Source: Candidatus Iainarchaeum sp. (GTDB taxonomy: Archaea > Iainarchaeota > Iainarchaeia > Iainarchaeales > GCA-2688035). Taken from it: a DNA stretch of 64,000 bases. Position numbers and translations under genes: made by a program. A model generated the notes under the pieces. That model saw nothing but the letters and a program-made list of their open reading frames with translations, searched no databases and was not told where the DNA came from. Of the stretch, positions 3,830-54,600 are shown in pieces (the first letter of the stretch is position 1; every line of letters begins with the position of its first letter). The stretch lies in assembly GCA_017610175.1 (NCBI GenBank), contig JAFCCO010000001.1, positions 72,265 to 136,264 of the forward strand. Direction: 5' to 3'.

Positions 3830-3916
3830 AAGCTACCCAAAGAAAATTAGAAAAATGATAATCCAAAACTGGTCCACGGATTCATCGCCTGCCTAACTCA
3901 ATTGATAACCAATAAG

Positions 3917-3928
3917 GTAATATATAAG
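3917..3928 (+). promoter_or_regulatory. Archaeal TATA-box-like element (taatatataag) about 25 nt upstream of a probable leaderless start at 3950
   Basis: AT-rich TATA-like octamer at canonical spacing before the ATG that begins the signal peptide MFKTYSKIVLIAFSLLLAANAFA. Confidence 0.4.
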
Positions 3929-3949
3929 AAGTGCATTATTTTTCATAGC

Positions 3950-10151: not shown

Positions 10152-10280
10152 TCCCTCCTCCCGGATTTGCACCGGGGACCCCTCGGTAACCGCTTTTTTC
10201 GCGGCAGCCATTTGGCGCGCTTCCTTGCGGGAGTATCAAAAATCTACAGCCGAGTGCTCTAACTACTGAGCTAAGGAGGG
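10152..10280 (-). tRNA. tRNA-Tyr (anticodon GTA) with an approximately 56-nt intron 3' of position 37
   Basis: Acceptor CCCTCCT/AGGAGGG with archaeal C1-G72; D stem GCTC/GAGC; anticodon stem CTCGG/CCGAG (loop CTGTAGA) only closes if about 56 nt are spliced out at the canonical 37/38 site; T arm CCCGG-TGCAAAT-CCGGG; discriminator A. Confidence 0.8.
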
Positions 10281-35600: not shown

Positions 35601-36171
35601 GAATATCAATTTCACACTGTTGGGCTGCGGTTGCTTGGCAGCGCAAGTCTGCTTGGTGGTTTACTCCGCGGGAATCAATTGTAATGTTGGTAACGGTTTC
35701 CTTGCCGCCTTCAGGCACAAATTTTAATCTGTTGTTTGAACCGCCCCAATCAGCGCGAAGATAGGTTTGGTCACTTCTTGTGCTGAATTTTTCAACAGAA
35801 AGGTTCCATTCAATTCCTGAGCCAATTGCCGGCCCGATAAAATTTACAACATTGTTTGTTGCTGTTTCCACATTTGGGGAGAGGTTTGACGCTGCGCCCT
35901 TTGCAGTGTCGTCAGTAATATACCAGTCAACCTTTGTGACTCCGCCAAGCGGGGCAGTGCTCCAGAAACTGTCAATGTCTGTCTGGGTAATTCTTGTTGC
36001 GGCAGTGTTCCTATTGTTGATTACAACACATTCAAGTGTTGCTCCGCCGTCCTTTGTGTTGCACAAATCACAGAATGTTCCCCAGCAGCTTGCGTTTGCT
36101 GACTGGAAAAAAGCAAGAATTAAAAGCAAGGTAAACAAGTACTGAAACTTCATCAAAACACTCTTTGGCAT
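32671..36171 (-). CDS. Large secreted beta-helix-like repeat protein (putative surface adhesin)
   Basis: 1166 aa; signal peptide MKFQYLFTLLLILAFFQSANA; dozens of short degenerate Asn/Gly/Thr/Ile-rich repeats (ITGI.A.NL.L, NxxGDI) like right-handed parallel beta-helix proteins; Ig-like C-terminal region. Confidence 0.65.
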   Translation of the reverse strand: MPKSVLMKFQYLFTLLLILAFFQSANASCWGTFCDLCNTKDGGATLECVVINNRNTAATRITQTDIDSFWSTAPLGGVTKVDWYITDDTAKGAASNLSPNVETATNNVVNFIGPAIGSGIEWNLSVEKFSTRSDQTYLRADWGGSNNRLKFVPEGGKETVTNITIDSRGVNHQADLRCQATAAQQCEIDIQGDLKVLNGAVLDDIKYIKAGSFTMESTMAGRTSILRLRGDMDVAGDITIKNGSYIPDNRINGHIKTTNNGNFTIDSATAPANGDTYIYYLAGPMEISGDILVKGGPHHAYVRGDSRITGITANNLKLWSIGNHQANIHNISGAINVAGTIELLAENTGTVYMRGESGAYIDGITARNITLHTKSSGEAYIYHISGPVNADAGGIRGDIELKQESTGDAYLYGADEWITGIKARNLTLNNTGPNAWTQIINMRNGNIDVSNDFKILGRYSRLNDFRNGDIIVGGNFEITGPTYQSDAGIVANSRFNNITVGGDLTLQNKRIYYVDGLVDVGGAMNLTTTEIHGKASFAANQVNMTNSNLYCNGDQHCKLNASGDISISGKGPSNGQSTMYFEKIETTNGGKFNLSNAALISNSNHLNAAGAGIFIDGVAGTDSWTMDTSEIHFNKPAPIRLSNGNALIVGRYPSNYATYYSKDIEVMNGNLTVKRGAETGRRHSLWAISNGRIYASGDILFEDVLVDGTTGYITSVESALGDITFTRSELRTLWGPLRAINGRITFTGTAITDDLIHDNAWVGIYANEFFVNNAQFHDLTYNSTNSDPSKYGAIEISGLMSLTNADLTNSWGGNHGNDIRWIHAGALEMADSQILTRGNIIIQDYLKMVNSRIRLNDNETIDDPTNSLIKIEVVNPVSQSYGIYIEGMKNSESIEANWDEPLSVANKGDSSHPAIFKDTKIENTGQALTLETCQLEVTGTFETFSNAGTLITGSASDPGKINMTTALAWSQHSCGAPGSISCSLTPNPATHDSTAFNSTITADFVGAVPNGTTVNINCGNGTSTTATVNSLQATGTCSYIDSGTASQVFNVVASSSSPVVQCSNSVFQNFGGGGPGGGTAVPTTIAIGAFILDKATKQPINSTAEIFIDITPGGSCASNPITTTISDGILNYSLSGCLLVPGAQYIAQVTIDPAGANETINVSFYP

Positions 36172-39159: not shown

Positions 39160-39618
39160 ATGCCCAGAAACAGGCCACAGAGGAAAGCAATTCCAAAGAA
39201 GGCAGCATCTGTCATTGCCGGATTCAGGCAGGACATTCACTCCCTTAACAGCAGTGTTCTTATAATCGGCCAGAAAATGAAGTATCTTGTAAGGAACGAA
39301 AAAATCCTTGGAAGAAACCTGATTGTTCTCAACAAAAAACACAAGGCCTTTGAGGCCAAAATTGTTTCGGGTGAAATCGGCGGGAAGGCAGGAACCTCTG
39401 AAATGTCCGCCGAGGTTGAGGCCCGCGTTAAGGATCTTGAAAGGAAAAACATTGAGCTTCAGGCACAGCTTGATTCATTCAAGCAGGGCCTTGCTTCGCA
39501 GGAACAGCTTCAGGAATTAAAGTATGTTATTGACAGCATTAACCCTTTGGAGCTTGCAACTCTTGAGCAGGTAAAGGAATTGATTGCGGAAAAGAAGGGC
39601 AAAAGGAAACAGGCCTAA
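39160..39618 (+). CDS. Hypothetical coiled-coil protein
   Basis: 152 aa; C-terminal half heptad-like (VEARVKDLERKNIELQAQLDSFKQGLASQEQLQELKYVIDS). Confidence 0.4.
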   Translation: MPRNRPQRKAIPKKAASVIAGFRQDIHSLNSSVLIIGQKMKYLVRNEKILGRNLIVLNKKHKAFEAKIVSGEIGGKAGTSEMSAEVEARVKDLERKNIELQAQLDSFKQGLASQEQLQELKYVIDSINPLELATLEQVKELIAEKKGKRKQA

Positions 39619-41141
39619 CGGGTTTCAACAAGTTCAGTGCAGGCACTCAACCCGGGCCTTAAGAGCACGCGGTAATTCTTTCTTCCCTTAAGCTGCACGC
39701 CAACATCGTTTCCCTGAACGATTTTCACCTTTGCCTTTGCCGCGTCAAGCATGCCGGGCTGCAAATCAATTTCGTGCGCAACAGAAACGGCATTTCCCAC
39801 ACCATACTGCTGCATTTCATTTAAGTCCTGAATAATTGTTTTTGCAAGCTCGCTGTTTTCGTTCCTTCCAATAATGCTTTCCACCTGCGGGATAATAATC
39901 ATGCTTCTGAGTTGCGCACTTGGGCCCTGTTTTTTGTAGTGCTCAAGCAGGCCGTGAATAATGCAGTGAAGCATTATTAGCGAGACCCTTTTGTCATGCC
40001 CCCCCATATTTACTATTCCTGCCCTGCCCAATCCGTGCAGCCAGCTTTTGCTGATTTCAGCAATGTTGTTTTCGCCGTCAAAAAGTTCGGGATACCTTAA
40101 ATCCATTAGCTTTAGGATGCGTGCGGCGCGGCTTCTTTGGAATTCATTGAATTCCCCCCTTGTCTGCCTTGCCTTTACAATTCCGGAAACTTCTGCAAGG
40201 CTTGCAACCCTGTTTTCGTCAAGCACCTGCATTATTTCCTTTCCGGCAATTGTTTCATCCAGTCCAAACAATTCAAGCAACCCCTTTCTGTTCACACTTC
40301 CAAGGTCAACGCGCAGCTGCTGGGGGATAAAAAATTCTTTTGTCGGAAAGCCGATTGGCTCAATATCAACCTTGTAACTTTTCAAATCATCGCTTGCGGT
40401 TGTTCTCACACCCAACCCCTTAAAGCGCTTGTTCCAGTCAATCACAACCGCCGGAATGTTTGACAAAAGTGCGCCTTCAATAAGCAGGTGCAGCATGTGT
40501 GCACGGGCTTCTTTGCGTCCTCCTGAAACAACTGTTGATGAAAAAAGTGAAAGCGGCTCCTTTACCCCCATCTGCTCCCTTGTTATCCCAAGCATTAATT
40601 CCCCAAAGCTTATTGCTTTTCCAGCAGGCGCCGCTGCGGCAAAGCCTGACGGGATATGTGATGATGTTGAGAGGAGGGGCACAATCAGCGGCTGTGAGAA
40701 AAATGCCTGCTTTATTTGCTCGGGCGCCTGCTCAAGCTCCTGCAGCTGCAAATCATATGCCTTGCTTACGGCACTTATGGTTTTCACACTTGACCTGAGA
40801 TTTTTGATGTTTGCCTCAACCTCTGCCGCAAACTTTTCTTCATCGTATTCCACATAGCTTGGTTTTGAACCAAGAATAAAGAACCTGGTTGTTTCCTTTT
40901 CATCGTGCTTTGTTATTGTAATAACTTCGCGGGGAAGGGTTTCAACAAACCCCTCCAGTTCCCCGACAGCGTGGAATACCTTGTAAACCTCCACAACCGA
41001 GCCCTTTACTTTTCCGCCCTCTTTTTCAAGAATGGACACAAGGATTATGGATTCAGGGTTTGAGTATATTTCAACGTCGTATCCCTCGAAATTCCCTTTG
41101 AACATCTCCTTCCAGGGGCCGTCTTTTAAGCGGAAATCCAT
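39615..41141 (-). CDS. HerA/FtsK-superfamily-like protein with degenerate (non-canonical) Walker A
   Basis: 508 aa; segment VVSGGRKEARAHMLHLLIEGALLSNIPAVVIDWNKRF lines up with HerA's IAGSTGSGKS...NIPVVVFDPHGEY but has GGRKEA in place of GSGKS; no DExx Walker B seen. Confidence 0.4.
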   Translation of the reverse strand: MDFRLKDGPWKEMFKGNFEGYDVEIYSNPESIILVSILEKEGGKVKGSVVEVYKVFHAVGELEGFVETLPREVITITKHDEKETTRFFILGSKPSYVEYDEEKFAAEVEANIKNLRSSVKTISAVSKAYDLQLQELEQAPEQIKQAFFSQPLIVPLLSTSSHIPSGFAAAAPAGKAISFGELMLGITREQMGVKEPLSLFSSTVVSGGRKEARAHMLHLLIEGALLSNIPAVVIDWNKRFKGLGVRTTASDDLKSYKVDIEPIGFPTKEFFIPQQLRVDLGSVNRKGLLELFGLDETIAGKEIMQVLDENRVASLAEVSGIVKARQTRGEFNEFQRSRAARILKLMDLRYPELFDGENNIAEISKSWLHGLGRAGIVNMGGHDKRVSLIMLHCIIHGLLEHYKKQGPSAQLRSMIIIPQVESIIGRNENSELAKTIIQDLNEMQQYGVGNAVSVAHEIDLQPGMLDAAKAKVKIVQGNDVGVQLKGRKNYRVLLRPGLSACTELVETR

Positions 41142-41210: not shown

Positions 41211-41750
41211 ATGTTGGTTACGATGGTAAACAGGGAAGTTGTGCTTCAGACCATAAAAAAGATGAAGGAAAGCGGAATTGATAACTCAGTTATCAAGGCC
41301 ACCTTGAAGGACATTGGCTTGAATGACGAGGAGTCAAAGCAGTATATGAAAGAGGCCGCAGGCGAAAAGGCTGAGGCAAAGAAAGAGGCCGATATTGTGC
41401 AGGACCAGATTGCCGAAAAGACCGCCGAGAAAACAGCTGAAAAAATCAAGGAAGAGCTTGTTGCCGAGAATGAAGAGCGTGAATTGAGGGACACAACACA
41501 GCGCGTTGTTTTGGAGGAGCAGAAGTCAAAGATGGAGGATGTTGAAAAAGGTGTCGGCAAGCTTCATCAAAAAATTGAGTCTCTTGCAACTCCCGCCAAC
41601 AAGGAATTAAGCGGAAACATAGCCGTGCTTGAACAGCGCATTAACGGGATTGATAAAAAGATTTCCGACCTTAAGGCAATCAATACCGCAACAAAGGACT
41701 TGATGGAAAAGGTTCTTGAAGCAAACCGCAAGATTCTAACCAAGCTTTAG
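41211..41750 (+). CDS. Hypothetical coiled-coil protein
   Basis: 179 aa, Lys/Glu-rich heptad repeats throughout; divergent from the HerA-like gene across an AT-rich TATA-containing spacer. Confidence 0.45.
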   Translation: MLVTMVNREVVLQTIKKMKESGIDNSVIKATLKDIGLNDEESKQYMKEAAGEKAEAKKEADIVQDQIAEKTAEKTAEKIKEELVAENEERELRDTTQRVVLEEQKSKMEDVEKGVGKLHQKIESLATPANKELSGNIAVLEQRINGIDKKISDLKAINTATKDLMEKVLEANRKILTKL

Positions 41751-42118
41751 CCAAACAGTTTCTTGGCCGAGTCTTTTGTTTTTTTTGCGGCTTCCCCTAA
41801 TTTCTTTGGCTTGAACTTCCACTTTGTCATTGTCCTTGAATTCATGCTCGCGACCTGTTCGTAGTCTGAAAAAAAGGTCTCGCCTGTTCTTGCGCCCATT
41901 TCCTTTATTCCGTCTATCCACACGGTTTGGTCCGGAACCTGCCCCTCCGCTTCCTCCATCTCATCCATTATTTTTGAGCCGAAATTTTTTGCGGAAGGGT
42001 AATTGAATACAAAAAATGATGCAATGGCTGTGACCACCGCGGGAATTGGCATCTCAAACCAGATAAAGAACATGCATGCAAAGAGAAGAAATATTCCTAT
42101 GGCCGGGTTCAAAATCAT
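41747..42118 (-). CDS. Small membrane protein
   Basis: 123 aa, two N-terminal TM helices, charged C-terminal tail; last of five co-directional small genes following the giant gene. Confidence 0.4.
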   Translation of the reverse strand: MILNPAIGIFLLFACMFFIWFEMPIPAVVTAIASFFVFNYPSAKNFGSKIMDEMEEAEGQVPDQTVWIDGIKEMGARTGETFFSDYEQVASMNSRTMTKWKFKPKKLGEAAKKTKDSAKKLFG

Positions 42119-42441
42119 TCGCCCCCGCCCATCAGCCCTGAATACATGTCCGGGCTGTAGTATTCGGGTTGCTGCTCTCCGCCCCCGCCCTGCTTTACTC
42201 CAAAAATCAGTGCAAAGATAACAAGCCCGAAGAAAACGAACGGCCAGTAGGGCTCAAGGCTTGACCTAAACATATATAATGCAGCCATTGCCACAACAAG
42301 AATTATTGTTGCGGAAACGCTTCTCATTGTAAGGATTGTCACCGCAACAACCGCAAAAGCCAGCCAGTTTTCGTTGAACTGGACGGCAAGCATCATCAGA
42401 ACGAGCGCGATCATGAAGGTAAACGAGTCCATTAATAGCAC
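42115..42441 (-). CDS. Small membrane protein with Gly-rich C-terminal tail
   Basis: 108 aa; three TM helices; tail KQGGGGEQQPEYYSPDMYSGLMGGGE paralogous to the tail of the 43084..43458 product. Confidence 0.45.
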   Translation of the reverse strand: MLLMDSFTFMIALVLMMLAVQFNENWLAFAVVAVTILTMRSVSATIILVVAMAALYMFRSSLEPYWPFVFFGLVIFALIFGVKQGGGGEQQPEYYSPDMYSGLMGGGE

Positions 42442-42714
42442 CTAATCAAATATCTTTACCTTCTCAAACAAAGTGTTTCCAAACGTTGCAAACAGGAAAA
42501 TCAGCACCGGAATGAACACAAGCTGCGGGAACTGAATTACTGTCAGGTAAACTACAATTACTGCAAACAAAATCGCAAGCTTTGCGCTCCCCAAAGCCTT
42601 TTTTGCCCAGCTGAAAATCCACACAAGGTAGAACAGTGAGAGCACTACCCAAATGTTGTCAAGCAAAGGATCCGCAAAGGGCCCGCTTACCGCAAGAATT
42701 GGCATCAAATCCAT
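42442..42714 (-). CDS. Small membrane protein
   Basis: 90 aa, two to three TM helices. Confidence 0.4.
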   Translation of the reverse strand: MDLMPILAVSGPFADPLLDNIWVVLSLFYLVWIFSWAKKALGSAKLAILFAVIVVYLTVIQFPQLVFIPVLIFLFATFGNTLFEKVKIFD

Positions 42715-42761
42715 TTTGTTTTCCTCATTAAATTAATGAATCTTATCTAATAAATTCCTTT

Positions 42762-43148
42762 CTATTTCTTCATATTCATCCCAATTCCCCACACAATTAC
42801 CGAAAGGAAAGAGAATCCCATCAGAAAGTACAGCAGAATGTATGCTGAGGCCGTAAAGTAAGCCCACTTAATTACAAGGAAATAAACAAGGGCTGCTGAA
42901 ATTATAAGCGAAATTACGCTGTTTCCAATGTATCCCCTCACAGTCGCAAAAATTATTATCGCAAGAATTATTCTCATAATGATGTCTGCAATCGGGAAAA
43001 CCGCCATAATAACCGGGGGGATTAATGCAACAACCACAAAGGCGGCAAGAATTATCAGCACAAGATTGCCTTTCTCATTCAACTTAACGCCTCCCTCTTG
43101 CAGGGGCTCTTGCCCTTGCGCCCTGTCCGGAAGCAACCCTCTTGGCAA
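42762..43148 (-). CDS. Small membrane protein (start uncertain)
   Basis: 128 aa ORF, overlaps upstream gene by 65 nt so the true start is probably internal; segment NEKGNLVLIILAAFVVVALI loosely resembles a class III (prepilin-like) signal. Confidence 0.35.
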   Translation of the reverse strand: MPRGLLPDRAQGQEPLQEGGVKLNEKGNLVLIILAAFVVVALIPPVIMAVFPIADIIMRIILAIIIFATVRGYIGNSVISLIISAALVYFLVIKWAYFTASAYILLYFLMGFSFLSVIVWGIGMNMKK

Positions 43149-43458
43149 GGTCTGCCCCGCTGCTTATTGGGCTCTGCTCTCCACCGCCTGAACCTCCTCC
43201 GACAAAGAAAAAGTCAATAAGGATTCCGGCCGCGCCCATCACAAGCAGCATCATAAGAACGTAAACCGTTTCAAAAAACCACGCATAGGGTGACAAAAGC
43301 ATAAAGTATGCAAACCCGACAATCAACACGATTGAAACAGGCCCCTTTCCCAAATGGTTTACCGCAAAGGAAATTATTGTGAGCAGTATGAATATCTTTA
43401 GGACAAAGGTCATGTCCCGAAAAAACTCCATTATGAACAGCATGGCTAAGTCTATCAT
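43084..43458 (-). CDS. Small membrane protein with Gly-rich C-terminal tail
   Basis: 124 aa; three TM helices; tail VGGGSGGGEQSPISSGADLAKR...RGRR; first gene after the giant ORF. Confidence 0.45.
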   Translation of the reverse strand: MIDLAMLFIMEFFRDMTFVLKIFILLTIISFAVNHLGKGPVSIVLIVGFAYFMLLSPYAWFFETVYVLMMLLVMGAAGILIDFFFVGGGSGGGEQSPISSGADLAKRVASGQGARARAPARGRR

Positions 43459-43498: not shown

Positions 43499-46400
43499 CT
43501 AGCTGCCGTAGCCAATGCAGGTCTGGTCTGCTGCAAGGCCTTCCTCTATTTCACTAAGGCTGCTGTAGCTTCCCACCATTTCGTAAAGTGTTTTTGGGTT
43601 CCACCAGAAAGACGTCTCGGAACCGGTGTCTGTCACGCAAACGTCTCCGGCCTCAACAAGCTCAAAGAGGTCCTGGAGTTCTGCAACACTGTCCCTTGCT
43701 GATTTGCTGTTGTTGTTCATTGTGGAAATTCCCTTCAATTCGACCGATGATGCCAGTGCGCTGTCAGGCGTTAGGAATGCAAGCCCTTCCGGAGCAATTC
43801 CCTTAAGTGCAAAAGAGCCGTTGGTTGGAGTGTAAATATATGTTTTGAGGTAGACGTCTCCCGAGCGCTCTGCGTCCTTCCAGTCAAGTGCGTAAGCATA
43901 CTGCCACACTGCAAGCGGGTCCCCTGAAACTCCTTCCCTGTCAGGGGTATTTGAGAACTTTTCAAACACAGGGATTCCTGTAAAGTCAAGGCACTGCCCT
44001 GCTCCCGTCCAAAAGCTAAGGCTGCTTCCAACCTCCTGCGGCTGGTCAACATCAAGCAGTTCAAAGAATGCCGAGAACGGTTCGTCCGTTGAGCCCTTGT
44101 TTATTACCATCATAACAGGTGTTGCGTAGTGGGGGTAGAAAAGCAGGTCGTTTTCGTTGTAGCTTGAACCCCTCTTAATTTTAAGCAGCATTCCCCTGTT
44201 TGAGGCAAGTGAATTAATGTTCTTAAAGCCAAAGACAGTGTCAGTATTTAGCGTGCTGACCGTTGTGGAGCCGGAAATCTCCTCTGTATTGACAAGTATT
44301 CCGTCATCGCTGTTGACTGTGAAAGCGTCTCCTGCGTTTATGTAGTCCAATCCGTATCCTACACGCCCGTTAGAGGTTGTTTTTCCAAGCTCTCCGTTGA
44401 ATGGCAGGTAGTAGAAGATGCTGTTCGGGAACGGTTCCTCTGCAATGTACATGCTTATCTCAATTTCGGCTGTTGGGTCTCCGCTCGTGTCAAACAGTGT
44501 AAAGTCCTTGTTCTCAAAGTCAATCTTTAGCAAAATATCGTACTTTCCGGCGTTTGAGAGCTTTGTTGAATTAACATATCTTCTAACGAAGTGCATTCTG
44601 CTTGTGTCGCCAAAGTAATCTATGAATGCACCGTCTCCTCTGCTCACAAACCACTCAGGTGCGTCCATGAAAGCAATCTCATCATAGTAATCCACAAAGT
44701 CGCTCTGGAAATCTGTGCTGTATCCGTCCTCCATAAGGCTTACTTTGAATTGCACGTAGTCCCTGAAGTCGTTCAGGTTCTGTATCTCATCAGTCCACAC
44801 AACCTCTCCGAACTCGTCCATTTCCTCCAAATAATATTCAAGCGCGGGCTTTCCATCAAAGAGCCTTGTTGAGTAGGGCAGCCAGCAGGTGCCCTCTTCC
44901 TGTGTTCCGGGAATAAGGAATGAAACAGTCAGGCTGCTTGTCCTGTCCTGGTATTCGGCATCAAAGTATTCCGGGACCTCTGAGTTAACGTCGTTTCTGT
45001 TTATTGTGTCCTCGCTAATCAGCTTTGCCCTTGCGCTGTAGTAGCCGCTGCTTTCCGGCAGGTCAACAAAGCCGCATGAAACAGTTTCTGTGCTTCCGGC
45101 CGGCACAAACGCTGCCTGTGTGCATGTTTGTTGCCCAGCGCTTAGTGAAATTCCGCCTGGTGCCACAAGGTATATTTCAATATCCCCGCTTTTGTCAAAC
45201 CCTGAGTTGTTTTCAATTTTGACTGCTACTGCGGCGGTTGTTCCCGCAACGCTTTTCTCTATTGCGCTTAGGCCCATTGTTCCGCTTGGAACTTCGTGCG
45301 TTTCCATCGGAGCCTGGATTTGCTCCAGCACAAGCATTGCCGGGTTGTCCGGGCAGGTTATTACAGGGTTTTCTTTGAGGAAGTCCTCAAGTATTTTGAT
45401 TCTCTTGGTTAGCATTATTCCAAACTGTGTTGCGTCACAGTATATTCCGTTTGGGTTTTCCGCAAGGCAGCTTTCGTTTGTTATTCCGCTTACTTCGTTC
45501 CATGCCCATGAGAGCTTTACGCGTGGCAGTGCATCATATCCTGTTGTTCCAAACATTGTGCCCTGCAGGCAGCCTGATTCCGGCCTGTATGGCGGAATCT
45601 TGTCAATAATTGTCTTTGTGTTGAATTTTAGGTGTATTCTTTGTGTGAATGTTTCGGCGCTTATGTCCGGCACATTGAATGGCCCAAAGTCTCCGTCGTC
45701 TCCTGGAATTATTGTTGGGTTTGCGTGGTTGTGCTTTGTTGCGCTAAAAGCGGTTGTTCCGTAAACAGGTTCAGATTCCTCCAGAGCAGTATTTTCAAAC
45801 ACAACAGCCACATCCTGCCGCTCCCATGTCCCAAATACCTTGGCGTCCTCGGTATTCCAGGTTCCAGCAATTCCCTGCCTGTCAATTGTTAGTGGCAGGG
45901 CGTCTTCCTTCAGGTTAATTATGTAATCCACAAGCGGCTGCTGCACGCGCTGGGCGCATGGGTCGTCATCCGCTCCAAACAGGCCTCCGAGCAGCCCTCC
46001 TGCAAGCGCCCCAAGCGCTGCAAATGTTCCTGTAATTGCCCAGAAGTCCCCTTTCTGCATTGAGGACGCCATTGCCATTCCCTCTGCCGCTTTTGAAGCG
46101 GCTTTTGCCGCCTTCAATGCATTCTTCACCGCAGGGACGGCGTCGTCAATTCCTTTTATTGAATTCTTAAGCTGGTCACTTATTGTGTCTTTTATTGTGT
46201 CTTTGGCGCTGCCCATTGCAGTTTTCATGGCTTCGTTTTCGGCTTCCATCTCAGCCAGTTGCTCGGTTTTGAATGCTTGTAATTCTACTATTGCCTCATC
46301 AATTGCTGCCTCGCACGCTGCTCCTGGGCAAGTGGGAACACACTTCGGTGGGCAACAGGTTCCAGGGGCACAGCTTCTGGCAAGGCAGGGTGGGCGTGCT

Positions 46401-49400
46401 GCGTTCATTGCAGTGGTTAGTGCATCAATTTCCGCCTCTGTGCTTGCAATTTCTTCGGGAATCTTTTTTCCAAGGTCGTCAGTAATTATTTCCTGCCCTT
46501 GCTTTGTTGCGTCAGTCATTGTGTCGCTTGCTTGCCCTGCAAGTTTTCCGGAGCCCTTAAAACCGCTTTTTCCGAATCCAAGGAATCCTCCACTTCCGCC
46601 TGAAGTGTCGAAGAAGCTTGCGGCCGCATCAAGGTTTGGTGGTTTCTCTCCGGCCGATTTTGGAGTTGCGTTCTTTTGCCCTTGTGAATAATTGTTTTGT
46701 GCCTCGCCTGCCATATCCTGTGCTTCTGTTGCCTTGTCAAGCCCGTCCTGTGCTGTGTCTGCAAAGTCTTGTGTATTGTCAAGAGCGGCATCGGTTGCTT
46801 GCTGTATGCCCTCGGTTGCTGCCGTTAATGACTGGGCAGCTCCTGTTACTGCGCCTCCGGCTTGGCAAACAGTGTCAACCTGTGCGGCTTTTCCTGTTTC
46901 AAGTGCTTTGCTGGCTTTTTGAGTTGCATCAGCGGTTTCCTTTGCCTTTTCGGCCGCTTCAACTGCTTTGTCCGCGCTGTCAACCGCTGTTTGGGAGGCT
47001 TCCGCTGCTTTTGATGCGGCATCGCCTGCTTTTGTTGCTGCGTCCCCTCCGTCTGTTATTGCCTGGTCGTCAACTGATTCGGCAGCCTTTTGTGCGCCCT
47101 GCCCTGCTTTCAGCGCTTGCTGGGCTCCCATAATTCCTCCGATTGCGGCTCCGACTCCTGCGCCCGCAAGGTTGAAGAGTTCCTCTTCCTGTTCCTCTGC
47201 CATTCCCCAGGCACATGCGCTTGCGTCAACCGTAACCATTTCGGAGAGGCTTTTGTTCTTCAGCTGTGCTGTGTCCTTGTTTCCCTGCCCTTTGATGTTG
47301 AATTCGTATTTGTCAAGTGAGAAAATGTCGTGCTCTGACATGTCCACAAACACGTCAAGCAGCTTCACTTTTTTGAAGCTTCTTCCAGGAGTTCTTGCCG
47401 AAACCCATACTCCGTACAGTCCGGGAATTGTCTGGCGCATTACTGTTATTTCCTGCACCGGGTTGGTTGGGGTTGTTGAAAATTTTTGCGGCATTACATT
47501 TATTCCGCCCTCTGCCCCGCCGCTGCATCCTGTGTCGTTTCTGCAGAGTGAAAAGTCAATTGTTGTGTTTCCGCAGTTGCTTGCGTCAACCACAAATGTT
47601 GTGCTTCCGTTTTCAACGCCTGGAACAAGCACAACCGATTCCGCGCCCTCGTACGTTACACAGCTTTCAAGGTTCATTATTTTGATTGATGAATCTATAT
47701 AGCTTGGGGAGCTTCCGACCTTTTGGTAGCCTGTTCCCTCGCCTGTAAACATTTCCCCGTCAATTGAAACCTGGAATTCGGCGTCCTGCCCAAGGTAGCC
47801 TTGGAGGGGGGTAAATGTAAGCAGGCCGTAGTAAAGCCCTTCTTCGCGAACGTCCTCAAACATTCTTGACCAGACAATTGGCTTGAGTGTTTCAATATTG
47901 CTTTCAGCTGAAAGGGCGTCCTGCAGGCTTAATTCAACGTTTCCCATTATGTCGCTTTGCCAGTCTATTTTTGCAACAAGCCTGTCGAGCGGTAGGAATT
48001 TTCCCTTGCTCATGCAGTTGTTCTGCACCTCAAACTCGAGCACTGCCGCATTTCCTTGTGTTGTTGTTTCCCACTTGCTTTTTGTTATTACAACACAGTC
48101 TTCTGTTTCAGGCAGGCCGCTTATTGTTACGTTTACCTTTAGGGGGATTATAAAGTCGTAGACAGCTCCAGCGTCCTTGTTTTCAAATGTAAGCCAGACG
48201 CTTCCCTCAAGCTTTTCCGCTTTCCTCAGGATTTCCGAAGCGTTCTCGCTGAGCTTTACCTTAACAAGCTCTACTTCCCTTACCTCATTTCCTTCAATTG
48301 TTGTTCCCTGGAACTGCCCAAGGTAGTTGGCCATTGTGGCTTCATCCAAAAGGCCTTTGAACCGCCCGCTTATGTTTGTTCTTGTCAGTTCAAGCTCGCT
48401 TGGGATAATGTTTGTTATTTCAATAAATTTGTTTGCCTCTGGCTCGTCCTTTGTTGAGAGATTTGAGGTTATTTGTTCCGGCGAAAAGAGTAGAACGTTT
48501 GCGTCAACAAACAGTTCAATCGGTTCTGCGGCATAGCCCGGCTTTTCCGCCCTGATTGTTATTTTTGTTCCCGCTGAAGAGGCCGGGATTGTAAAGCTTG
48601 CTTTTCCCAAACTGTTTGTTGTGTCTGTCCAGCTTTGCTCTGTCCTGTTGTAGGCGCTTTTTGTAATGCTTACTATTGCGTTTTGCAACTCAAACTTTTG
48701 CCCTCCATCAACCAATTCGTAGATTGTAACGTCCATTGGTGTTGCGACAAAGGATGGAACCACAAGCGGCTGAACCTCTATTGCCATGTTCTTTTCGGAT
48801 ACAGCGCGAATTGAAACAATTTTTTGGAACACGATTTTTCCGTCTGCAACCACCTTTATTTCAAAGCTGTCCGAGCCAAGCTCTGTTGGCTTGAACTTAA
48901 GTTTTGCGTTAACCGTTTTGCCTTTGGTGAAGTTTCCAAGGCTGATTTCATCAACCGTCCTTACCCTGATGTTTTCGGCGGTAATTGTTCTTGCGTCCGC
49001 GTCCTGTATTTCGTATTCTGTTATCAGGAATGTTTCATCCAACCCTATTATTGACAGTTCACTGTCGCTGTAAACTGTGCTGCTGTTGTTTGAGATAATA
49101 AAGTTGAATACATGTGGGCTGTTGACGCGTGCCTCGTACGGTGCATATATGTAAAGCCCTTCCTCTTCGTCAAGAATCCATTCGCCGCTGTAGCAGAAGT
49201 CTTCGTCGCACTCCGCAAGCTCTCCCTCGTAATATTCCAGGAAATATGATTTTGCGTAGAGGGCCTGCTTTTGTGAGCTGCTTTCCTCAACCCCTAGTGT
49301 GCTGTCGTAGGGGTCCCTTTCAATTGCGTCGTCAACCTCTGTCCACGCCCTGTAGTGCATTGGAAGCATTGTTTGCGGTGTTATCTGGCTTTTTACCCTT

Positions 49401-51574
49401 ACTTCAATTCCAAAGAAATAGTTTGCGGCCTCTATGTCATCCCACTCAAAGTTAACCCATTTTGCGTCCCCTTTCACACGGTTTTCAAAGTCAACGCTGT
49501 ATCCGGTGGGAGAGGTAAATGTGCTGCCTTTGAGAACTGAGGAAACGTTTCCTGCTATCAGGTCCTTTATTACAAGCGGGTCGTTTGCAAGAAGGCTTTC
49601 GTTTCCAACGCGAAAGTGTGCGCCGCCCCTGTCATAGCCGTCTGTTTCCGGAACGGCCAGCTTGAATTTTAGGATATAACGCTGTCCGGCATTTAGTGAG
49701 CCGGCAGGCTGCATGCTTGGTGTGAATGCGCCGACAAAGTCTATTTTTGGCTCGCCTGAAATAAGTCTTGGCTCAAGCTCTGCCAAAAAGTTAACAGTTG
49801 TTTCCGGGTAAAGCTGCTTTGGCATTGTGTGGACTGTTTGGAAATTGGGGTGTTTTATAACTGCGTAAACTTTCTTGTCCGCTTTCAATGAGTAGCTTGC
49901 TGTCCCGTCCGTTAGCGGAATTTTTCCAAGGCTTGTTCCTGTTATTGAAAAGAATTCAACGTCTGATTCTGCAACACTCTGCCCTTCCTCATCAACTGCC
50001 GCAACATTTACTGTTGTTTCCCCAATAAAAAGCTCTACAACAAAGTCGGTTACCGTTCTTATGTCAATCTTCTTTCCGTCCAATTTGTTGTCTCCGGATG
50101 AGGGGAATTTTTCAACATAGATGTAGTATGACTCTTCCTTGACTCCGATAAATTCTGCGTTCCCGTTGAAGTCCGTTATTTCGGCGTCGTAGGGTGCCAA
50201 AAAATCATTTTCAAGGAAGCGAAGCTTTACTTTTGCGTTTTCAACAGGCACTTCGTCCTCGTCAAAAACCCTTACATTAATTCTCCCGCTGTTTTCAGCA
50301 GTCATTTTCTCCATTTCCAGCTCTATTACCCCGTCAATTTCGCCTGCGAGATCAAGTTCTCCGTAGAGGTAATCATCGTGCACGCTGTAAAGGATGTAAT
50401 CGTCATCTTCCTCTATTGGGAAAATTACTGGCTCTCCTGCTTCGCCTGTTTTGCTCTCTGCAACGGTTTTGCCGTCCGCCCCAACAAGCCTTATTGCGGC
50501 GTCTGCAATTTCGGCACCTGAATCGGCATCGACCGCTGTGATTTCAAGCGTTCCCTTAATGCTTTTGCTTACCACAACGTTGACAGATTCTGTTTCGTCA
50601 ACGCTAATTCTGATGTTTTCCTCGGTTGCAATTGCGTAATTCCCTGCCGTGTCCTGCACGCCCACACTGTATGTGCCCTGCACAATGTCCCTGAAAATTG
50701 TTTCACCGTAGAATTGCGTAAATTTCTCCTGTTCCTTCAATCCGTCTGCGTCAAACAGGCTTACTTTAAAGCTGACCGTGTCAAGAAGCTTTCCCTGCTT
50801 GTCCTTTATTTTTACCCTCAGGCTTCCAATTGCAGTTTCCTCTTCCTGCAGCCTCAGGGTTACAATGCTTTTGTCTAAGAGATACACATCTCCCGCAAAT
50901 TCAACGGGTTCGAGGACAGTTGCCTGCATCACTCCGCAGCCTGGCGGTTCCTGCACCGTTATTGTTCCATCCCGATCCTCATCAATAACTTCCGGGGGGA
51001 CAGGGGTTATTCCGCTTGAGCAGGCAAGCCTTACCCTAATTGGCTTTGATGAAATCCTTTCCCCGTTTGTGTACTGGAAAACAAGTGTTCTTTCAATGAT
51101 GTCAGGCAGGCTTCTTTTAAGCTTTATCAGTTTCTCCTGCGCCCCTGTTGAGACAAGAACTGTGTCCTCAAAGGGCAAAAATTCGGTTCCGCCAATCGTA
51201 AGTGTTTTGATTCTAAGTTTTGCCTCTTCCCCTGCCGGGAGGATAAGCAGTGCTTTTCCACTGCTGTCGGTCAAAACGGTTCCGGTTAGGTCACCTGAAA
51301 TGAATGTAATTTCCACGTTTGCCAAAGGGTTGCCTGCATCGTCTTCCAGCAGCACATTGACTACTCCCTGCTGGATTGTAAGCACTGGGAGAAGGAAAAT
51401 CGCGCCCAGCCCAATGACTGTAACAATTAGGATTGCAAGCAGGGACGGGAAAACGCTGTCGATTGGGTCTACAACCTTGTAAATGGGAATGTAGTTGTTT
51501 AGATTGTCAAGCACGGAATAGTACTTGTCTTCAACCGAAAAGTAAAGGTCCTTTATGTTGTCAACTATTCCCAT
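43499..51574 (-). CDS. Giant surface protein (2691 aa), N-terminal membrane anchor, Ig-like/CarbopepD_reg-like repeats, central glycine-zipper/low-complexity/Cys module
   Basis: Single uninterrupted ORF; N-terminus DLYFSVEDKYYSVLDNL...IPIYKVVDPIDSVFPSLLAILIVTVIGLGAIFLLPVL; C-terminus ...FWWNPKTLYEMVGSYSSLSEIEEGLAADQTCIGYGS; both ends homologous to the next giant gene. Confidence 0.7.
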   Translation of the reverse strand: MGIVDNIKDLYFSVEDKYYSVLDNLNNYIPIYKVVDPIDSVFPSLLAILIVTVIGLGAIFLLPVLTIQQGVVNVLLEDDAGNPLANVEITFISGDLTGTVLTDSSGKALLILPAGEEAKLRIKTLTIGGTEFLPFEDTVLVSTGAQEKLIKLKRSLPDIIERTLVFQYTNGERISSKPIRVRLACSSGITPVPPEVIDEDRDGTITVQEPPGCGVMQATVLEPVEFAGDVYLLDKSIVTLRLQEEETAIGSLRVKIKDKQGKLLDTVSFKVSLFDADGLKEQEKFTQFYGETIFRDIVQGTYSVGVQDTAGNYAIATEENIRISVDETESVNVVVSKSIKGTLEITAVDADSGAEIADAAIRLVGADGKTVAESKTGEAGEPVIFPIEEDDDYILYSVHDDYLYGELDLAGEIDGVIELEMEKMTAENSGRINVRVFDEDEVPVENAKVKLRFLENDFLAPYDAEITDFNGNAEFIGVKEESYYIYVEKFPSSGDNKLDGKKIDIRTVTDFVVELFIGETTVNVAAVDEEGQSVAESDVEFFSITGTSLGKIPLTDGTASYSLKADKKVYAVIKHPNFQTVHTMPKQLYPETTVNFLAELEPRLISGEPKIDFVGAFTPSMQPAGSLNAGQRYILKFKLAVPETDGYDRGGAHFRVGNESLLANDPLVIKDLIAGNVSSVLKGSTFTSPTGYSVDFENRVKGDAKWVNFEWDDIEAANYFFGIEVRVKSQITPQTMLPMHYRAWTEVDDAIERDPYDSTLGVEESSSQKQALYAKSYFLEYYEGELAECDEDFCYSGEWILDEEEGLYIYAPYEARVNSPHVFNFIISNNSSTVYSDSELSIIGLDETFLITEYEIQDADARTITAENIRVRTVDEISLGNFTKGKTVNAKLKFKPTELGSDSFEIKVVADGKIVFQKIVSIRAVSEKNMAIEVQPLVVPSFVATPMDVTIYELVDGGQKFELQNAIVSITKSAYNRTEQSWTDTTNSLGKASFTIPASSAGTKITIRAEKPGYAAEPIELFVDANVLLFSPEQITSNLSTKDEPEANKFIEITNIIPSELELTRTNISGRFKGLLDEATMANYLGQFQGTTIEGNEVREVELVKVKLSENASEILRKAEKLEGSVWLTFENKDAGAVYDFIIPLKVNVTISGLPETEDCVVITKSKWETTTQGNAAVLEFEVQNNCMSKGKFLPLDRLVAKIDWQSDIMGNVELSLQDALSAESNIETLKPIVWSRMFEDVREEGLYYGLLTFTPLQGYLGQDAEFQVSIDGEMFTGEGTGYQKVGSSPSYIDSSIKIMNLESCVTYEGAESVVLVPGVENGSTTFVVDASNCGNTTIDFSLCRNDTGCSGGAEGGINVMPQKFSTTPTNPVQEITVMRQTIPGLYGVWVSARTPGRSFKKVKLLDVFVDMSEHDIFSLDKYEFNIKGQGNKDTAQLKNKSLSEMVTVDASACAWGMAEEQEEELFNLAGAGVGAAIGGIMGAQQALKAGQGAQKAAESVDDQAITDGGDAATKAGDAASKAAEASQTAVDSADKAVEAAEKAKETADATQKASKALETGKAAQVDTVCQAGGAVTGAAQSLTAATEGIQQATDAALDNTQDFADTAQDGLDKATEAQDMAGEAQNNYSQGQKNATPKSAGEKPPNLDAAASFFDTSGGSGGFLGFGKSGFKGSGKLAGQASDTMTDATKQGQEIITDDLGKKIPEEIASTEAEIDALTTAMNAARPPCLARSCAPGTCCPPKCVPTCPGAACEAAIDEAIVELQAFKTEQLAEMEAENEAMKTAMGSAKDTIKDTISDQLKNSIKGIDDAVPAVKNALKAAKAASKAAEGMAMASSMQKGDFWAITGTFAALGALAGGLLGGLFGADDDPCAQRVQQPLVDYIINLKEDALPLTIDRQGIAGTWNTEDAKVFGTWERQDVAVVFENTALEESEPVYGTTAFSATKHNHANPTIIPGDDGDFGPFNVPDISAETFTQRIHLKFNTKTIIDKIPPYRPESGCLQGTMFGTTGYDALPRVKLSWAWNEVSGITNESCLAENPNGIYCDATQFGIMLTKRIKILEDFLKENPVITCPDNPAMLVLEQIQAPMETHEVPSGTMGLSAIEKSVAGTTAAVAVKIENNSGFDKSGDIEIYLVAPGGISLSAGQQTCTQAAFVPAGSTETVSCGFVDLPESSGYYSARAKLISEDTINRNDVNSEVPEYFDAEYQDRTSSLTVSFLIPGTQEEGTCWLPYSTRLFDGKPALEYYLEEMDEFGEVVWTDEIQNLNDFRDYVQFKVSLMEDGYSTDFQSDFVDYYDEIAFMDAPEWFVSRGDGAFIDYFGDTSRMHFVRRYVNSTKLSNAGKYDILLKIDFENKDFTLFDTSGDPTAEIEISMYIAEEPFPNSIFYYLPFNGELGKTTSNGRVGYGLDYINAGDAFTVNSDDGILVNTEEISGSTTVSTLNTDTVFGFKNINSLASNRGMLLKIKRGSSYNENDLLFYPHYATPVMMVINKGSTDEPFSAFFELLDVDQPQEVGSSLSFWTGAGQCLDFTGIPVFEKFSNTPDREGVSGDPLAVWQYAYALDWKDAERSGDVYLKTYIYTPTNGSFALKGIAPEGLAFLTPDSALASSVELKGISTMNNNSKSARDSVAELQDLFELVEAGDVCVTDTGSETSFWWNPKTLYEMVGSYSSLSEIEEGLAADQTCIGYGS

Positions 51575-51607: not shown

Positions 51608-54600
51608 TTAAGACGCGCCTATGCAGTCTGCTTCTGCCTTGCTTCTTTCGCCTGCAAGCTCTTCAAGGATTACCTTTGGGTTCCAGAAGAACTGGTTGCT
51701 TATCCTGTTGTCTGAACCGATTAGGCAGACCTTTCCTTCGCTTACAAGGTCGAATACATCCTCTACCGAATCAATACTGCTTGAGCCATAGCTGTTGAAC
51801 TGCATTCCGGGAACTCCGTTCAATGCAATCTGTGTGCCTATGTTGTCAACTGCGATTAAGGCCATTTCGTCTGAGTATGATCTTCTCTGCATCAGGCTGC
51901 TTGTGTTCTGTGGTGTGAAAACAACACTTTGCAGGTAGGTGTTTCCCTTCCTGATTGGGTTGCACCATTCAATTCCGTAATCCTGAATATCTGTTCCTCT
52001 TGCACAGCTTATGTTTGCCGTTACCCCTCCGTGCACGTCCCAAGTGTTCTGCCATGCGTCAAGCATTGGGCTGTCCTCAAAGTCGCGGCAGTTTGTTCCA
52101 ACCCCGTCCCATGGGATCATCTTTGAGAATGCCGTTTCTGGGCTTCCTCCAACTTCAATAGAGTAGAATCCGTAAGCGTCCTCTCCCTCTCCGTAACCAA
52201 CCTTCATCATTATTGGGGTGGCGTAGCTTGGGCTGAGCACAATATTTGTTTCGTCTGCTCCTGCCTGCACATCAAGCAGTATTCCCCTTCTGTCAATGTT
52301 CAGTCTCCTGAAGTCATCGTTGAATCCTGCGTTAACCCATCCTCCGAATACAGGGGTGCTTGCCGCAAGGTTTGTTGAAACAACCAGGTGGTCTGATTCG
52401 CTGTTGATGCTGATTGTTTCCTCGCTTGTTTGCCTGAAATTAACTCCGTATCCCTGCCTTCCGTTAAGTGAATCCGCCCCAATCCTTCCGTCAAACGGCA
52501 GGTAGTAGAACGGGCTGTCGGGTTCAGGCATGCTGAGCTGTGACATTCTAACCTTTACAACAGCATCAGGCTGTCCGTTTGAGAAGAATTCCCAGTTGTC
52601 GTTGTTGAATTCAACGTCAAGGGTAATTTCGTACTTTCCGGCCTGCAGCGGTGAGTGCGGTGCCTGTGCATAATCAAATATGAAGTTGTCCCCGCTTGAG
52701 AAATATTTTCCAAAGCTGTCGTCTCCCTCGTAGTACCACGCCGGGCAGTCGAAGAAGCTCTGGTGCACGCAGAACTCGTGGAAGTCGGCCCTGAAATCGT
52801 TTGTGTATGCATCTCTTATGAGGAATGCGTTGAATTTCAGCAGTTTTAGCATTTCTTCCTTGTCTGCACTGCTCCAGGCGTTGTTTCCTGCAACCTCTGT
52901 TGCCTCAAGGAACTGCTTGAACCTTAGGGTTGTGTATGGCTCGCATTCCTCTATTCCAAGCTCTCCCATTATTAGCGTTGTGCTTATGCTGTCTGAGTCC
53001 TCGTCATTGTTTTCGCAGTCCGGGCAAAGCGTTGGCACGATTATTGCCTCTGTTTTGTATGACCCTGCCGGCACTCCCGTGAACAGGCAGTCAACTATTT
53101 CCCTGCTTATGAGCTCAATTTCCTTTGTGCAGCTTTTTACAAGCGCGTCTGTTTCCGCGTTCTTTATGTTAATTGTTACCTCAACCGCCATTGCCTTGTT
53201 GTTGTTGCTTTCAACGGTTGCAAATATGTTTGCGTCGTTGTTGACCTTTCTTGCCTGGATTTTTGTTAGTGCGACATCTGCAACTGTTGAAATGATTGGC
53301 CTTTCTTTTACAGATGAGGCGCTTCCCGGGCTTGGGCAGTCAAACGGTTTGTTTTCCTGGATGAATTCCTGCAGTTTCTTTACCTTGCGTAGCAATTCAA
53401 TGCTGAACTGTGTTGCATCACAGTATATGTAATCGTCATTTCCCTCGTCGCAGGTATCAATGTTTATGCTGTCCCAGTCCCATTTGAACAAAACCTTTGG
53501 AACTGCCGCTTTCCCTGTGACCCCAACTTTGGTTCCAAGCTTGCAGTTCGGAATTGGCCCCGGCTCTTTCTGCGCTTCAAGCGGGTTGAAGGCGTTGAGC
53601 TGTATCTTGAATCTTTGTGAGTATGCGTCCCTTGACTCTTCCTCAATTTCTTCAGGCCTTGTTTCTTCGTCAAACTCATATTCGGTCACATAATTGATCC
53701 TTTCACCGCTTACTTTCAGTGTCCTATAAATTGGTGTTGCAGGGTCAGGCTGCACAACCCCTGTTGTGTTAATAACGTCAAGCCTTGTGTATTCCACATT
53801 GAGCCTTTCGTTTTCGCGGTTTGGCTCGGTGTATGATTCGTCCCGCAGTTGTACTATTATGTCCTCGCTTGGCACTTCCTCTATTGTGGTTTCGGTTTCC
53901 TCACCTTCTCCCTCAATAGTGAGCAATGCCCCTGGCAGGAACAGTTCTGCGGTGTGAACCTCAATGTCCCTCAAAATCTCTGTGAATGTAAATGTTCCGT
54001 CTTCCTGCTGTGAGTAAGCCCAGAGCGTTCCCATCAAAAAGCCCTGAATGCCCCAGCTTGCAAAGCTTGGCGGGCCCATTATTCCCTTTGCAATTCCACC
54101 AACCATTCCGCCCATCATGCCCTGTCCAATTCCTGAACCGATCGACTGCGCTGCGCCTGTTGCAAGGCCTGTTGGCCCTAGGATTGGCTCGTCTGATGGG
54201 GCGGCATAATCAGTTCTTGGGAGTTGTGGTTGTTCAACAGGGGGTTTTGGTTGTTCAACTGGGGCTGCTGGTTGTTGTACTGGCGGACTAACTGGTTTTG
54301 GTACAACTGCAGGGGCTGCAGGCTTGTCTCCGCCCGCTTCCAATCCTCCAAGTATTCCTTTATCTGTTATTCGGACTCCTTTTTTGTCGCGCCAGTCCTC
54401 GCCATCATAAATGTATTCTCGCCCTCCAAATGTTCTTTTAATTTCCTTGCCGCCGCCTTTTGCTGCGTCTTTTGCGGCGCCTGTAAAGAAGCTGCTTCCT
54501 TCACCCATTGCTGAGAATCCACCTGCAAGGCCCATTGCGAGGCCCACAATTGCGCCTGTTTTCATGGCGTCCATCCAGCTGTGCTCGTCCCATTCAACGG

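Follow-up and report, generated by a model that had tools for sequence, protein, structure and literature searches.

Architecture of the locus

We analyzed a 64,000-nucleotide stretch of DNA (referred to here as the window) from Candidatus Iainarchaeum sp., which corresponds to positions 72,265 to 136,264 of the forward strand of contig JAFCCO010000001.1 (assembly GCA_017610175.1). Its minus strand carries, head to tail, three very large genes encoding the giant proteins GP3, GP2, and GP1, and directly downstream of GP1 lie genes for five small polytopic membrane proteins (Table 1). In the middle of GP1, two hydrophobic glycine-zipper segments, H1 and H2, bracket a variable insert with a dense cluster of cysteines, and this module is the subject of the present work. 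The original prediction, which was made from the sequence alone, quoted peptides from the module, and these are indeed present on the minus strand at the positions given for them. It also described the region between the two hydrophobic segments as about 330 residues of low complexity rich in Ala, Lys, Asp, and Thr. The loop is actually 359 aa long (22% A, 8.9% K, 8.9% G, 8.4% D, 8.1% T, 7.0% Q, and 6.7% E), and four helices are predicted to make up most of it.

The zipper of H1 consists of G1471, G1475, G1479, and G1483 and that of H2 of G1855, G1859, G1863, and G1867, so that the two share one register. These are the only two G-x3-G-x3-G-x3-G chains in the 2,691 residues of GP1, compared with a mean of 0.12 in shuffled sequences (P for two or more, 0.015). 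Hydrophobicity alone is not beyond chance, as shuffled GP1 gives about four windows with a Kyte-Doolittle mean of at least 1.5. The loop has a net charge of -20; locally, an acidic EEQEEE stretch precedes H1, DDD follows H2, and a Lys-rich stretch lies before H2. No recognizable domain was found in the loop in Pfam or NCBIfam, and no DNA tandem repeats were found under the low-complexity module. The only Pfam domains of GP1 are beta-sandwiches (CarboxypepD_reg, SpaA, and MG-like) and are all N-terminal, and an 823-aa region follows H2.

GP1 starts with a signal anchor. The apparent free energies of membrane insertion (dGapp) given here are estimates from approximate values of the Hessa 2005 scale, applied independently of position; with this scale, the N-terminal anchors across the family mostly score between -2 and -8. 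In 50 family members, the 15 residues before the anchor contain 85 Lys or Arg residues, compared with 23 after it, which indicates that the N terminus is inside and the body outside the cell. The extracellular-type domains of the body agree with this placement. Residues 1 to 43 of GP1 (51446-51574, minus strand) and 1 to 40 of GP2 (58700-58819, minus strand) form a conserved peptide of about 40 aa before the anchor, with the consensus M..LKDxYxxxEDKWYxxLDKID..PxY..D in the GP1 and GP2 families. It is predicted to lie in the cytoplasm, where a partner may dock on it.

Table 1. Features of the giant-protein genes in the window (positions are counted from the first letter of the window; aa, amino acids)
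Feature	Position	Strand	Remarks and basis
GP1, giant protein carrying the module	43499..51574	minus	2,691 aa; open reading frame (ORF) and translation
N-terminal signal anchor of GP1, aa 44-62, SLLAILIVTVIGLGAIFLL	51389..51445	minus	Kyte-Doolittle mean 2.81; dGapp about -3.6
Cys1454 ('SACxWG'), upstream boundary of the insertion site	47213..47215	minus	Recurs in GP1-type homologues
H1, first glycine-zipper hydrophobic segment, aa 1466-1484, LFNLAGAGVGAAIGGIMGA	47123..47179	minus	Kyte-Doolittle mean 1.51; dGapp +4.0
Variable insert, aa 1485-1843	46046..47122	minus	Four predicted long helices and a Gly-rich linker; AlphaFold and composition
Seven-Cys cluster, aa 1730-1754, CLARSCAPGTCCPPKCVPTCPGAAC	46313..46387	minus	C-x4-C-x4-CC-x3-C-x3-C-x4-C
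H2, second glycine-zipper hydrophobic segment, aa 1844-1868, FWAITGTFAALGALAGGLLGGLFGA	45971..46045	minus	Kyte-Doolittle mean 1.6; dGapp +1.4
Cys1873 ('DPC'), downstream boundary of the insertion site	45956..45958	minus	Alignment of homologues
Five small polytopic membrane proteins (124, 128, 90, 108, and 123 aa), directly downstream of GP1	41747..43458	minus	ORFs
GP2	51608-58819	minus	2,403 aa
GP2 H1, aa 1415-1439, WMDAMKTGAIVGLAMGLAGGFSAMG	54503..54577	minus	Motif 'DEHDWGDAMKTGALVGLxTGLxGGF', conserved across the GP2 family
GP2 variable insert, aa 1440-1559	54143..54502	minus	Pro/Lys-rich, mostly disordered; pLDDT below 50 over model residues 198-286
GP2 H2a (Gly/Met-rich, aa 1560-1584) and H2b (aa 1585-1604, SFASWGIQGFLMGTLWAYSQ)	54008..54142	minus	Conserved 'GxGKxxxGxPSFLGWGLQGFxxGTxxAY'
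GP3	58888 to beyond 64000	minus	Frame still open at the end of the window; the listed 1,625-aa ORF is incomplete
GP3 insert, 96 aa	61834..62121	minus	G/Y/S/N/Q-rich, Cys-bounded, no hydrophobic helices; upstream-flank hidden Markov model (HMM)

A fixed insertion site in the giant-protein family

An exhaustive profile search over 1.84 billion cluster representatives yielded 163 proteins of the family. GP1 has 22 word-indexed homologues, and those that are named belong to metagenome-assembled genomes of 'Candidatus Diapherotrites' or 'Candidatus Iainarchaeum'. A scan of one genome per species gave 208 related stretches, of which 73 loci were kept; most taxon-labeled loci are from Iainarchaeum, including the complete genomes CP010424 and CP064981, and a few are labeled Micrarchaeota, Thaumarchaeota, or Chloroflexi. 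Judged by these sequences, the family is small and, on current sampling, largely confined to the Iainarchaeota (Diapherotrites, DPANN). We found no description in the searched literature of this giant-protein family nor of the envelope architecture of the Iainarchaeota (Diapherotrites), and both the family and its hairpin-bracketed insert appear to be undescribed. One related locus, L001 (1619-26888), has the same order of three giants followed by five small proteins, the latter being 29 to 69% identical to those in the window. The three giants and the five small membrane proteins thus form an operon that is conserved between the window and this locus and that may encode an undescribed envelope complex of the Iainarchaeota. 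None of the five small proteins has a match in Pfam, NCBIfam, or the PDB.

Using the conserved flanks, we located the site of the module in more than 150 homologues. It is fixed between two beta-sandwich domains, and in most GP1-type homologues its edges are formed by the motifs 'SACxWG' and 'DPC'. The upstream cysteine is kept in 10 of 14 aligned GP1-type homologues, the exceptions being P0010 and P0011, which lack it, and P0013 and P0014, which have other cysteine patterns. The length of the insert ranges from 12 to 861 aa, and among the GP1-type homologues both length and sequence vary. The module is not peculiar to GP1; it occupies an insertion hot spot that is shared by the whole family.

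The inserts occur in four states. The shortest ones (12 to 54 aa, as in P0007 and L064) have no hydrophobic segments. Inserts of 55 to 185 aa have a transmembrane (TM)-like H2, with a dGapp down to about -4 or -5, and a moderately hydrophobic H1; about 26 cluster representatives in this length range have an H2 with a dGapp of 2 or lower. Where the turn is at most 30 aa long, it is apolar and almost free of charge, so that 50 to 60 residues in a row are uncharged; many GP1-type orthologues have a helix-turn-helix of 55 to 80 aa at the site that lacks any charge, and the turns of the short hairpins together contain only 20 Lys or Arg residues in 1,007. The third state comprises long helical inserts with scattered or clustered cysteines, found in GP1, P0002, P0003, P0009, and P0057 to P0064; a Cys-dense cluster lies 103 to 119 aa before H2 in five of the seven long-loop GP1-type homologues. 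In the fourth state, which is the GP2 type, the helices are conserved in sequence and the inserts are 124 to 792 aa long. The original prediction depended on conservation of the glycine spacing, and this was found: chains of small residues at every fourth position with at least two glycines occur at the H1 position in 51 of 59 homologues and at the H2 position in 49 of 59, versus 9% of control windows. The loops themselves share little, as a BLAST comparison of the GP1 loop with other loops gave a single weak local match (P0064, E = 1.4e-4), and one of bracketed loops with the bracket-less long loops of the members of about 1,630 to 1,880 aa gave none.

These last members, P0107 to P0145, have a shorter architecture and carry inserts of 510 to 690 aa between the same flanks. 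Their inserts contain cysteine clusters such as 'CCNPPYC', and their H1 and H2 are degenerate and polar ('NGF[VI]NGAY'), which shows that the brackets can be lost. Another recurrent feature is a CPxC, CxPC, or CGPPC motif that falls exactly where the second helix begins in many orthologues with a short hairpin (P0004, P0005, P0060, P0075, P0102, P0121, P0129, P0152, P0160, P0163, L065, L068, and L072). The GP1 cluster, which contains '...CCPPKCVPTCP...', may be derived from such a motif.

The comparison with GP2 that had been suggested earlier revealed an equivalent block, with H1 and the pair H2a and H2b on either side of an insert. The GP2 orthologues have inserts of 124 to 395 aa, and 16 of 17 of these loops lack cysteine; some GP2-type inserts consist of Pro/Thr-rich linkers or small beta units. 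For GP3 the equivalence of the site is tentative, as the upstream-flank HMM matches just before the insert and the downstream-flank HMM finds no match. The GP3 insert is one of the Gly/Tyr/Ser/Asn/Gln-rich, 'prion-like' low-complexity inserts in this protein, another lying about 230 aa upstream.

Some paralogue loops contain domains of their own. The insert of L032 (3436-4407) has PKD-type Ig domains (K319L-like_PKD, 30.4 bits versus a cut-off of 27; KIAA0319L in the PDB, E = 3.4e-5) followed by a Cys-rich tail, and this PKD match is the only one above threshold when the GP1 module and about 60 loops are searched against Pfam and NCBIfam. At least six inserts of GP2-position paralogues from other Iainarchaeota (L016 [3001-7971], L019, L021, L022, L026, and L028) contain a unit of about 45 aa, C-x7-C-x5-C-x13-CC-x3-C, that is repeated in tandem. 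These six-Cys repeats are spaced by acidic or Pro/Thr linkers, and one insert of 769 aa contains 76 cysteines. The repeat has no homologue in Pfam, NCBIfam, or the word index and is probably a new disulfide-rich mini-domain.

Structure prediction

For GP1, residues 1330 to 2000 were modeled with AlphaFold on a 14-sequence alignment, with a mean predicted local distance difference test (pLDDT) score of 70. The flanking beta-sandwiches are predicted with a pLDDT of about 90; Cys1454 lies at the end of one, and the sandwich that follows Cys1873 scores 85 to 95. The loop forms four helices of 54 to 88 residues (model residues 174 to 241, 244 to 307, 343 to 396, and 422 to 509; pLDDT, 63 to 81) that are nearly continuous with H1 and H2. 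Between helices 3 and 4 the chain is predicted to turn back on itself, and the seven-Cys cluster is located there (pLDDT, 45 to 50). H1 and H2 form the base of the predicted bundle, adjoining the beta-sandwiches.

The GP2 model (residues 1290 to 2403, 44 sequences) has a mean pLDDT of 82. GP2 H1 is a 25-residue helix (model residues 126 to 150, pLDDT of about 76 to 85) that directly follows the final strand of the sandwich upstream of it. The H2 region forms helices at residues 284 to 292 and 297 to 315, and the latter, the 19-residue H2b, has a pLDDT of about 73 to 84 and runs into the downstream sandwich. The possibility that the hydrophobic segments are buried strands of a soluble domain is not borne out by these models, as AlphaFold gives helices, with pLDDT values of about 80 for the GP2 equivalents.

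A proposed membrane hairpin with an expanded turn

Judging from their long uncharged stretches, there is little doubt that in many members of the family the site carries a membrane-embedded hydrophobic hairpin. We read H1 and H2 of GP1 as the arms of the same hairpin because the short-insert orthologues carry it and because the C-terminal half of GP1 H2, GGLLGGLFG-x-D(D)PC, is common to the orthologues P0004 and P0005, whose H2 is TM-like. The interpretation that we favor, and in which we have about even confidence, is that the GP1 segments belong to a conserved membrane-embedded hairpin that serves as a second, internal anchor, the turn of which has been expanded into a lineage-specific helical module with a Cys-rich tip. 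According to this model, the N-terminal anchor would hold the giant envelope protein, and the hairpin would add an internal attachment point in the cell's own membrane. The hairpin would sit between two beta-sandwich domains, at a fixed surface-loop site that is bounded by two cysteines in most GP1-type homologues. In GP1 its turn would have grown to the 359-aa module, in which four long helices form a bundle whose tip is dense in cysteines. We infer that the marginal helices of GP1 are embedded in lipid and that the membrane is that of the cell itself. Mutual G-x3-G packing of the helices, together with packing on the co-encoded small membrane proteins, would possibly stabilize them there.

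The hairpin membrane insertion that was originally proposed for GP1 is supported for the family by the uncharged orthologue hairpins, and it is plausible for GP1, whose own segments are marginal. It is also in keeping with the contrast between acidic body-side and neutral loop-side flanks, with the direct connection of the GP2 helices to the sandwiches in the AlphaFold model, with the occurrence of three giants and five small polytopic membrane proteins in one operon, and with the placement of the body outside the cell; TTYH2, the best although weak PDB match, is likewise a membrane protein. Several results weigh against a hairpin in the membrane. The dGapp of the 19-residue H1 (about +4.0) and of the 25-residue H2 (+1.4) falls short of autonomous insertion, and most long-insert homologues are at +3 to +10. 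In many GP2-type sequences, inspection of the alignment shows a strictly apolar run of about 14 to 16 residues, which is too short to span a bilayer. There is no excess of Lys and Arg on the loop side of the helices (27 in the loop flanks versus 29 in the body flanks in the GP1 family and 33 versus 44 in the GP2 family). The long loops of paralogues hold a PKD domain and six-Cys repeats, which one would not expect in a loop facing the cytoplasm. P0007, L064, and several members with very short inserts have no hydrophobic segment at the site, which indicates that the hairpin is dispensable for the fold, and GP3 has none at the site that appears equivalent on one flank. AlphaFold, finally, gives a pLDDT below 50 for H1 and H2 of GP1, with H1 only partly helical.

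Because the loops that paralogues have at this site contain PKD and six-Cys modules, a simple topology with the loop across the membrane is doubtful. We lean somewhat toward a loop that, like the body, remains outside, in which case the helices would dip into the membrane from its outer face; we regard a true two-TM hairpin with a cytoplasmic loop as somewhat less probable. The body-side flanks of H1 and H2 are strongly acidic, and the flanks on the side of the turn and loop are neutral. Loop cysteine counts are a mixture of even and odd; GP1-type loops contain 1.3 to 4.1% Cys, and GP2-type loops are almost free of it. N-glycosylation sequons are mildly enriched in the N-terminal ectodomain (119 observed versus 94 expected and 240 versus 173) and are not enriched in the loops and the C-terminal body, so they are uninformative as a topology marker.

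A specific version of the hairpin model, which differs from it in topology alone, is that of a conventional two-TM hairpin made by the Sec machinery. Here H1 would be a stop-transfer sequence and H2 would restart export after a 359-aa cytoplasmic loop, so that GP1 would cross the membrane three times and would have two ectodomains and, in the cytoplasm, a helical, Cys-rich domain that perhaps binds metal. The short-insert orthologues do resemble classical hairpins, and the values for GP1 are close to those of the short-hairpin relatives P0004 (+3.8 and +0.7) and L065 (+3.5 and +0.5). A hairpin turn should expand most readily when it is exposed to water across the membrane, the local charges around the GP1 segments fit this orientation, and H1 and H2 pass almost without a break into the loop helices. 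However, the loop-side flanks across the family lack the excess of Lys and Arg by which the N-terminal anchor is oriented, and the net charge of the GP1 loop is -20. With a dGapp of about +4, H1 would have to stop translocation on its own, 359 residues ahead of H2. A TM-like H2 (dGapp of +1 or lower) is found only with inserts of at most 164 aa (9 of 18 short inserts versus 0 of 54 long ones; Mann-Whitney test, P = 6e-4, not corrected for phylogeny), which is the opposite of what is required if H2 has to act as an independent signal for reinitiation. The PKD domains and disulfide-type repeats in paralogue loops also argue against a cytoplasmic loop, and on balance we consider a Sec-made hairpin of this topology unlikely, although it is the most serious of the alternatives.

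Alternatively, the helices may be free of lipid and form a helical neck, a rigid or oligomerizing base for the exposed variable module, in which the glycine faces pack on each other, on the sandwiches, on the GP2 helices, or on other protomers. Glycine zippers are known to mediate the packing of helices, as reportedly described by Kim et al. (PNAS, 2005). The marginal hydrophobicity and short apolar runs of most long-insert members would fit such a role, as would the fair confidence of AlphaFold in the GP2 helices beside the sandwiches, the extracellular-type modules in the paralogue loops, and the fact that GP1 and GP2 are co-encoded and both have the helices. The orthologues with 55 to 80 uncharged residues and dGapp values as low as -4 or -5 argue against it, as such segments cannot exist in soluble form, and in most sequences the core helices have no polar substitutions on any face. 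We therefore regard a neck of this kind as improbable.

A membrane other than that of the producing cell may also be considered. The helices could insert into or span a second bilayer, either the host membrane at a DPANN-host contact or an unrecognized outer membrane, with the hypervariable loop as an exposed recognition module next to the helices or farther out. Although we judge it quite unlikely, this would explain the marginal hydrophobicity (needed for passage through Sec), the extracellular-type domains in the loops, and the combination of a conserved body with a hypervariable loop. A more specific idea is that the module acts on a target, inserting into the host membrane in the manner of a fusion peptide or toxin hairpin or forming a pore while the variable loop recognizes the host; the original prediction had suggested a host-membrane-inserting or pore-forming element. 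In their composition, the Gly/Ala-rich helices of marginal hydrophobicity are similar to viral fusion peptides, and the order of hydrophobic segment, long helices, Cys reversal, long helix, and hydrophobic segment recalls that of class I fusion subunits. In addition, the loops vary greatly, and PKD modules of the adhesin type or Cys-rich modules are present in some of them. Most known DPANN archaea live as obligate ectosymbionts (PMC11329633). For the Iainarchaeota we found no evidence as to whether they are symbionts. Fusion proteins and alpha-pore-forming toxins were matched in structure only through generic long helices. The hydrophobic parts adjoin the body at the foot of the bundle instead of occupying its tip, a domain of 823 aa follows H2, and the strongly hydrophobic hairpins of the orthologues would be trapped in the membrane of the producer during export. 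None of the analyses supports a pore-forming or host-inserting element, and we consider this idea very unlikely. That the segments have no specific function and are by-products of a Gly/Ala-rich, fast-evolving linker is hardly credible: the loop is hypervariable and of low complexity, hydrophobic windows alone are no rarer than in shuffled sequences, and some homologues lack the helices, but more than 100 sequences from two paralogous families keep the position, helicity, and glycine register as the intervening part changes, and the helices of the GP2 family are conserved in sequence.

The Iainarchaeota are uncultured DPANN archaea, and the giant and small membrane proteins of this operon are without functional annotation. 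What the family offers is a fixed insertion hot spot in giant proteins that occur throughout a phylum, where highly diverse inserts are found between the arms of a hydrophobic glycine-zipper hairpin. If the second anchor is real, the giants would be arches or sheets with two points of attachment to the membrane, and the hairpin that forms the second of these would carry a lineage-specific module; proteins attached in this way would be a model for how Iainarchaeota build and diversify their surface. The hairpins, which range from marginally to strongly hydrophobic and have a variable turn, form a natural series for studying the thresholds of membrane insertion. If the helices engage another membrane instead, the module would be a candidate for the long-sought machinery of DPANN-host membrane contact.

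Comparison with known systems

The closest parallel is with the Gly-zipper families PF05433, PF13488, and PF13441 of bacterial outer-membrane lipoproteins (such as SlyB/PCP), in which two short helices with repeated G-x3-G likewise form a membrane-associated hairpin. GP1 has the two helices with repeated GxxxG by which such proteins are recognized, and these families are the best Pfam matches to the GP1 module and to the short orthologue hairpin. All of these matches are below the gathering threshold: the GP1 module scores 11.0 bits with Gly-zipper_YMGG (cut-off, 28.9) and 9.7 with Gly-zipper_Omp (cut-off, 25), and the P0004 hairpin scores 21.8 (cut-off, 25) and 15.6 with Rick_17kDa_Anti (cut-off, 24.2), so neither can be assigned to one of these families. 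In contrast to the Gly-zipper 2TM and Omp families, the element described here is archaeal and internal to a protein of 2,691 aa instead of being a small lipoprotein. The turn in those families is short, as it is in the orthologues only, and not 359 aa long as in GP1.

The short-insert orthologues are also reminiscent of colicin pore domains and monotopic hairpin anchors, which have about 40 to 60 uncharged residues in a helix-turn-helix with an apolar turn. Unlike the colicin-type hairpins, they have no shielding amphipathic bundle and no toxin domain, they are flanked by beta-sandwiches, and there is no match in sequence or fold. Class I fusion subunits (gp41 and HA2, with a CX6CC-type loop) have a similar linear order of Gly/Ala-rich segment, helix, Cys reversal, helix, and hydrophobic segment. 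In GP1, however, this order is internal and is followed by 823 aa instead of a short tail, and there is no fold match: in the PDB, a chain derived from gp41 scores E = 0.25 and a mimic of SARS-CoV-2 HR1 scores E = 0.28, and the top 50 in BFVD include no fusion protein.

Searches with the GP1 model against the PDB and BFVD gave only nonsignificant, generic long-helix matches, which also include trypanosome receptors. The best match in a Foldseek search of the PDB was TTYH2 (9g71_A; E = 4.8e-3; TM-score, 0.32/0.48), which is weak and below usual significance. TTYH proteins are eukaryotic five-TM membrane proteins with a long helical extracellular domain; they are multipass proteins, the sequence identity is 9%, and homology is not implied. 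An alpha-pore-forming toxin of the ClyA type was considered and rejected (ClyA, E = 0.07 to 0.3; SmhB, E = 0.19 to 0.3; TM-scores of at most 0.37); such toxins have a hydrophobic hairpin or beta-tongue at the head of a long helical bundle, and in GP1 the hydrophobic segments lie at the other end, beside the beta-sandwiches. The tape measure proteins of phage tails are likewise long, Ala/Lys/Glu-rich, and helical and often carry internal Gly-rich hydrophobic segments. Several of them are among the top 25 BFVD matches, the best with a weak E value of 2.4e-3, but the TM-scores are at most 0.23 and the context and flanking domains are unrelated.

Neighboring genes

A family-B DNA polymerase gene lies at 36693-39086. 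A 508-aa ORF (39615-41141, minus strand) is located between this gene and the giant-protein operon, and a 1,166-aa ORF (32671-36171, minus strand) lies just beyond the polymerase gene; neither has a sequence match in Pfam, NCBIfam, or the PDB. At 10152-10280 on the minus strand, an Rfam match identified a tRNA gene of 129 nucleotides that was missed by ARAGORN, which is consistent with an intron-containing archaeal tRNA.

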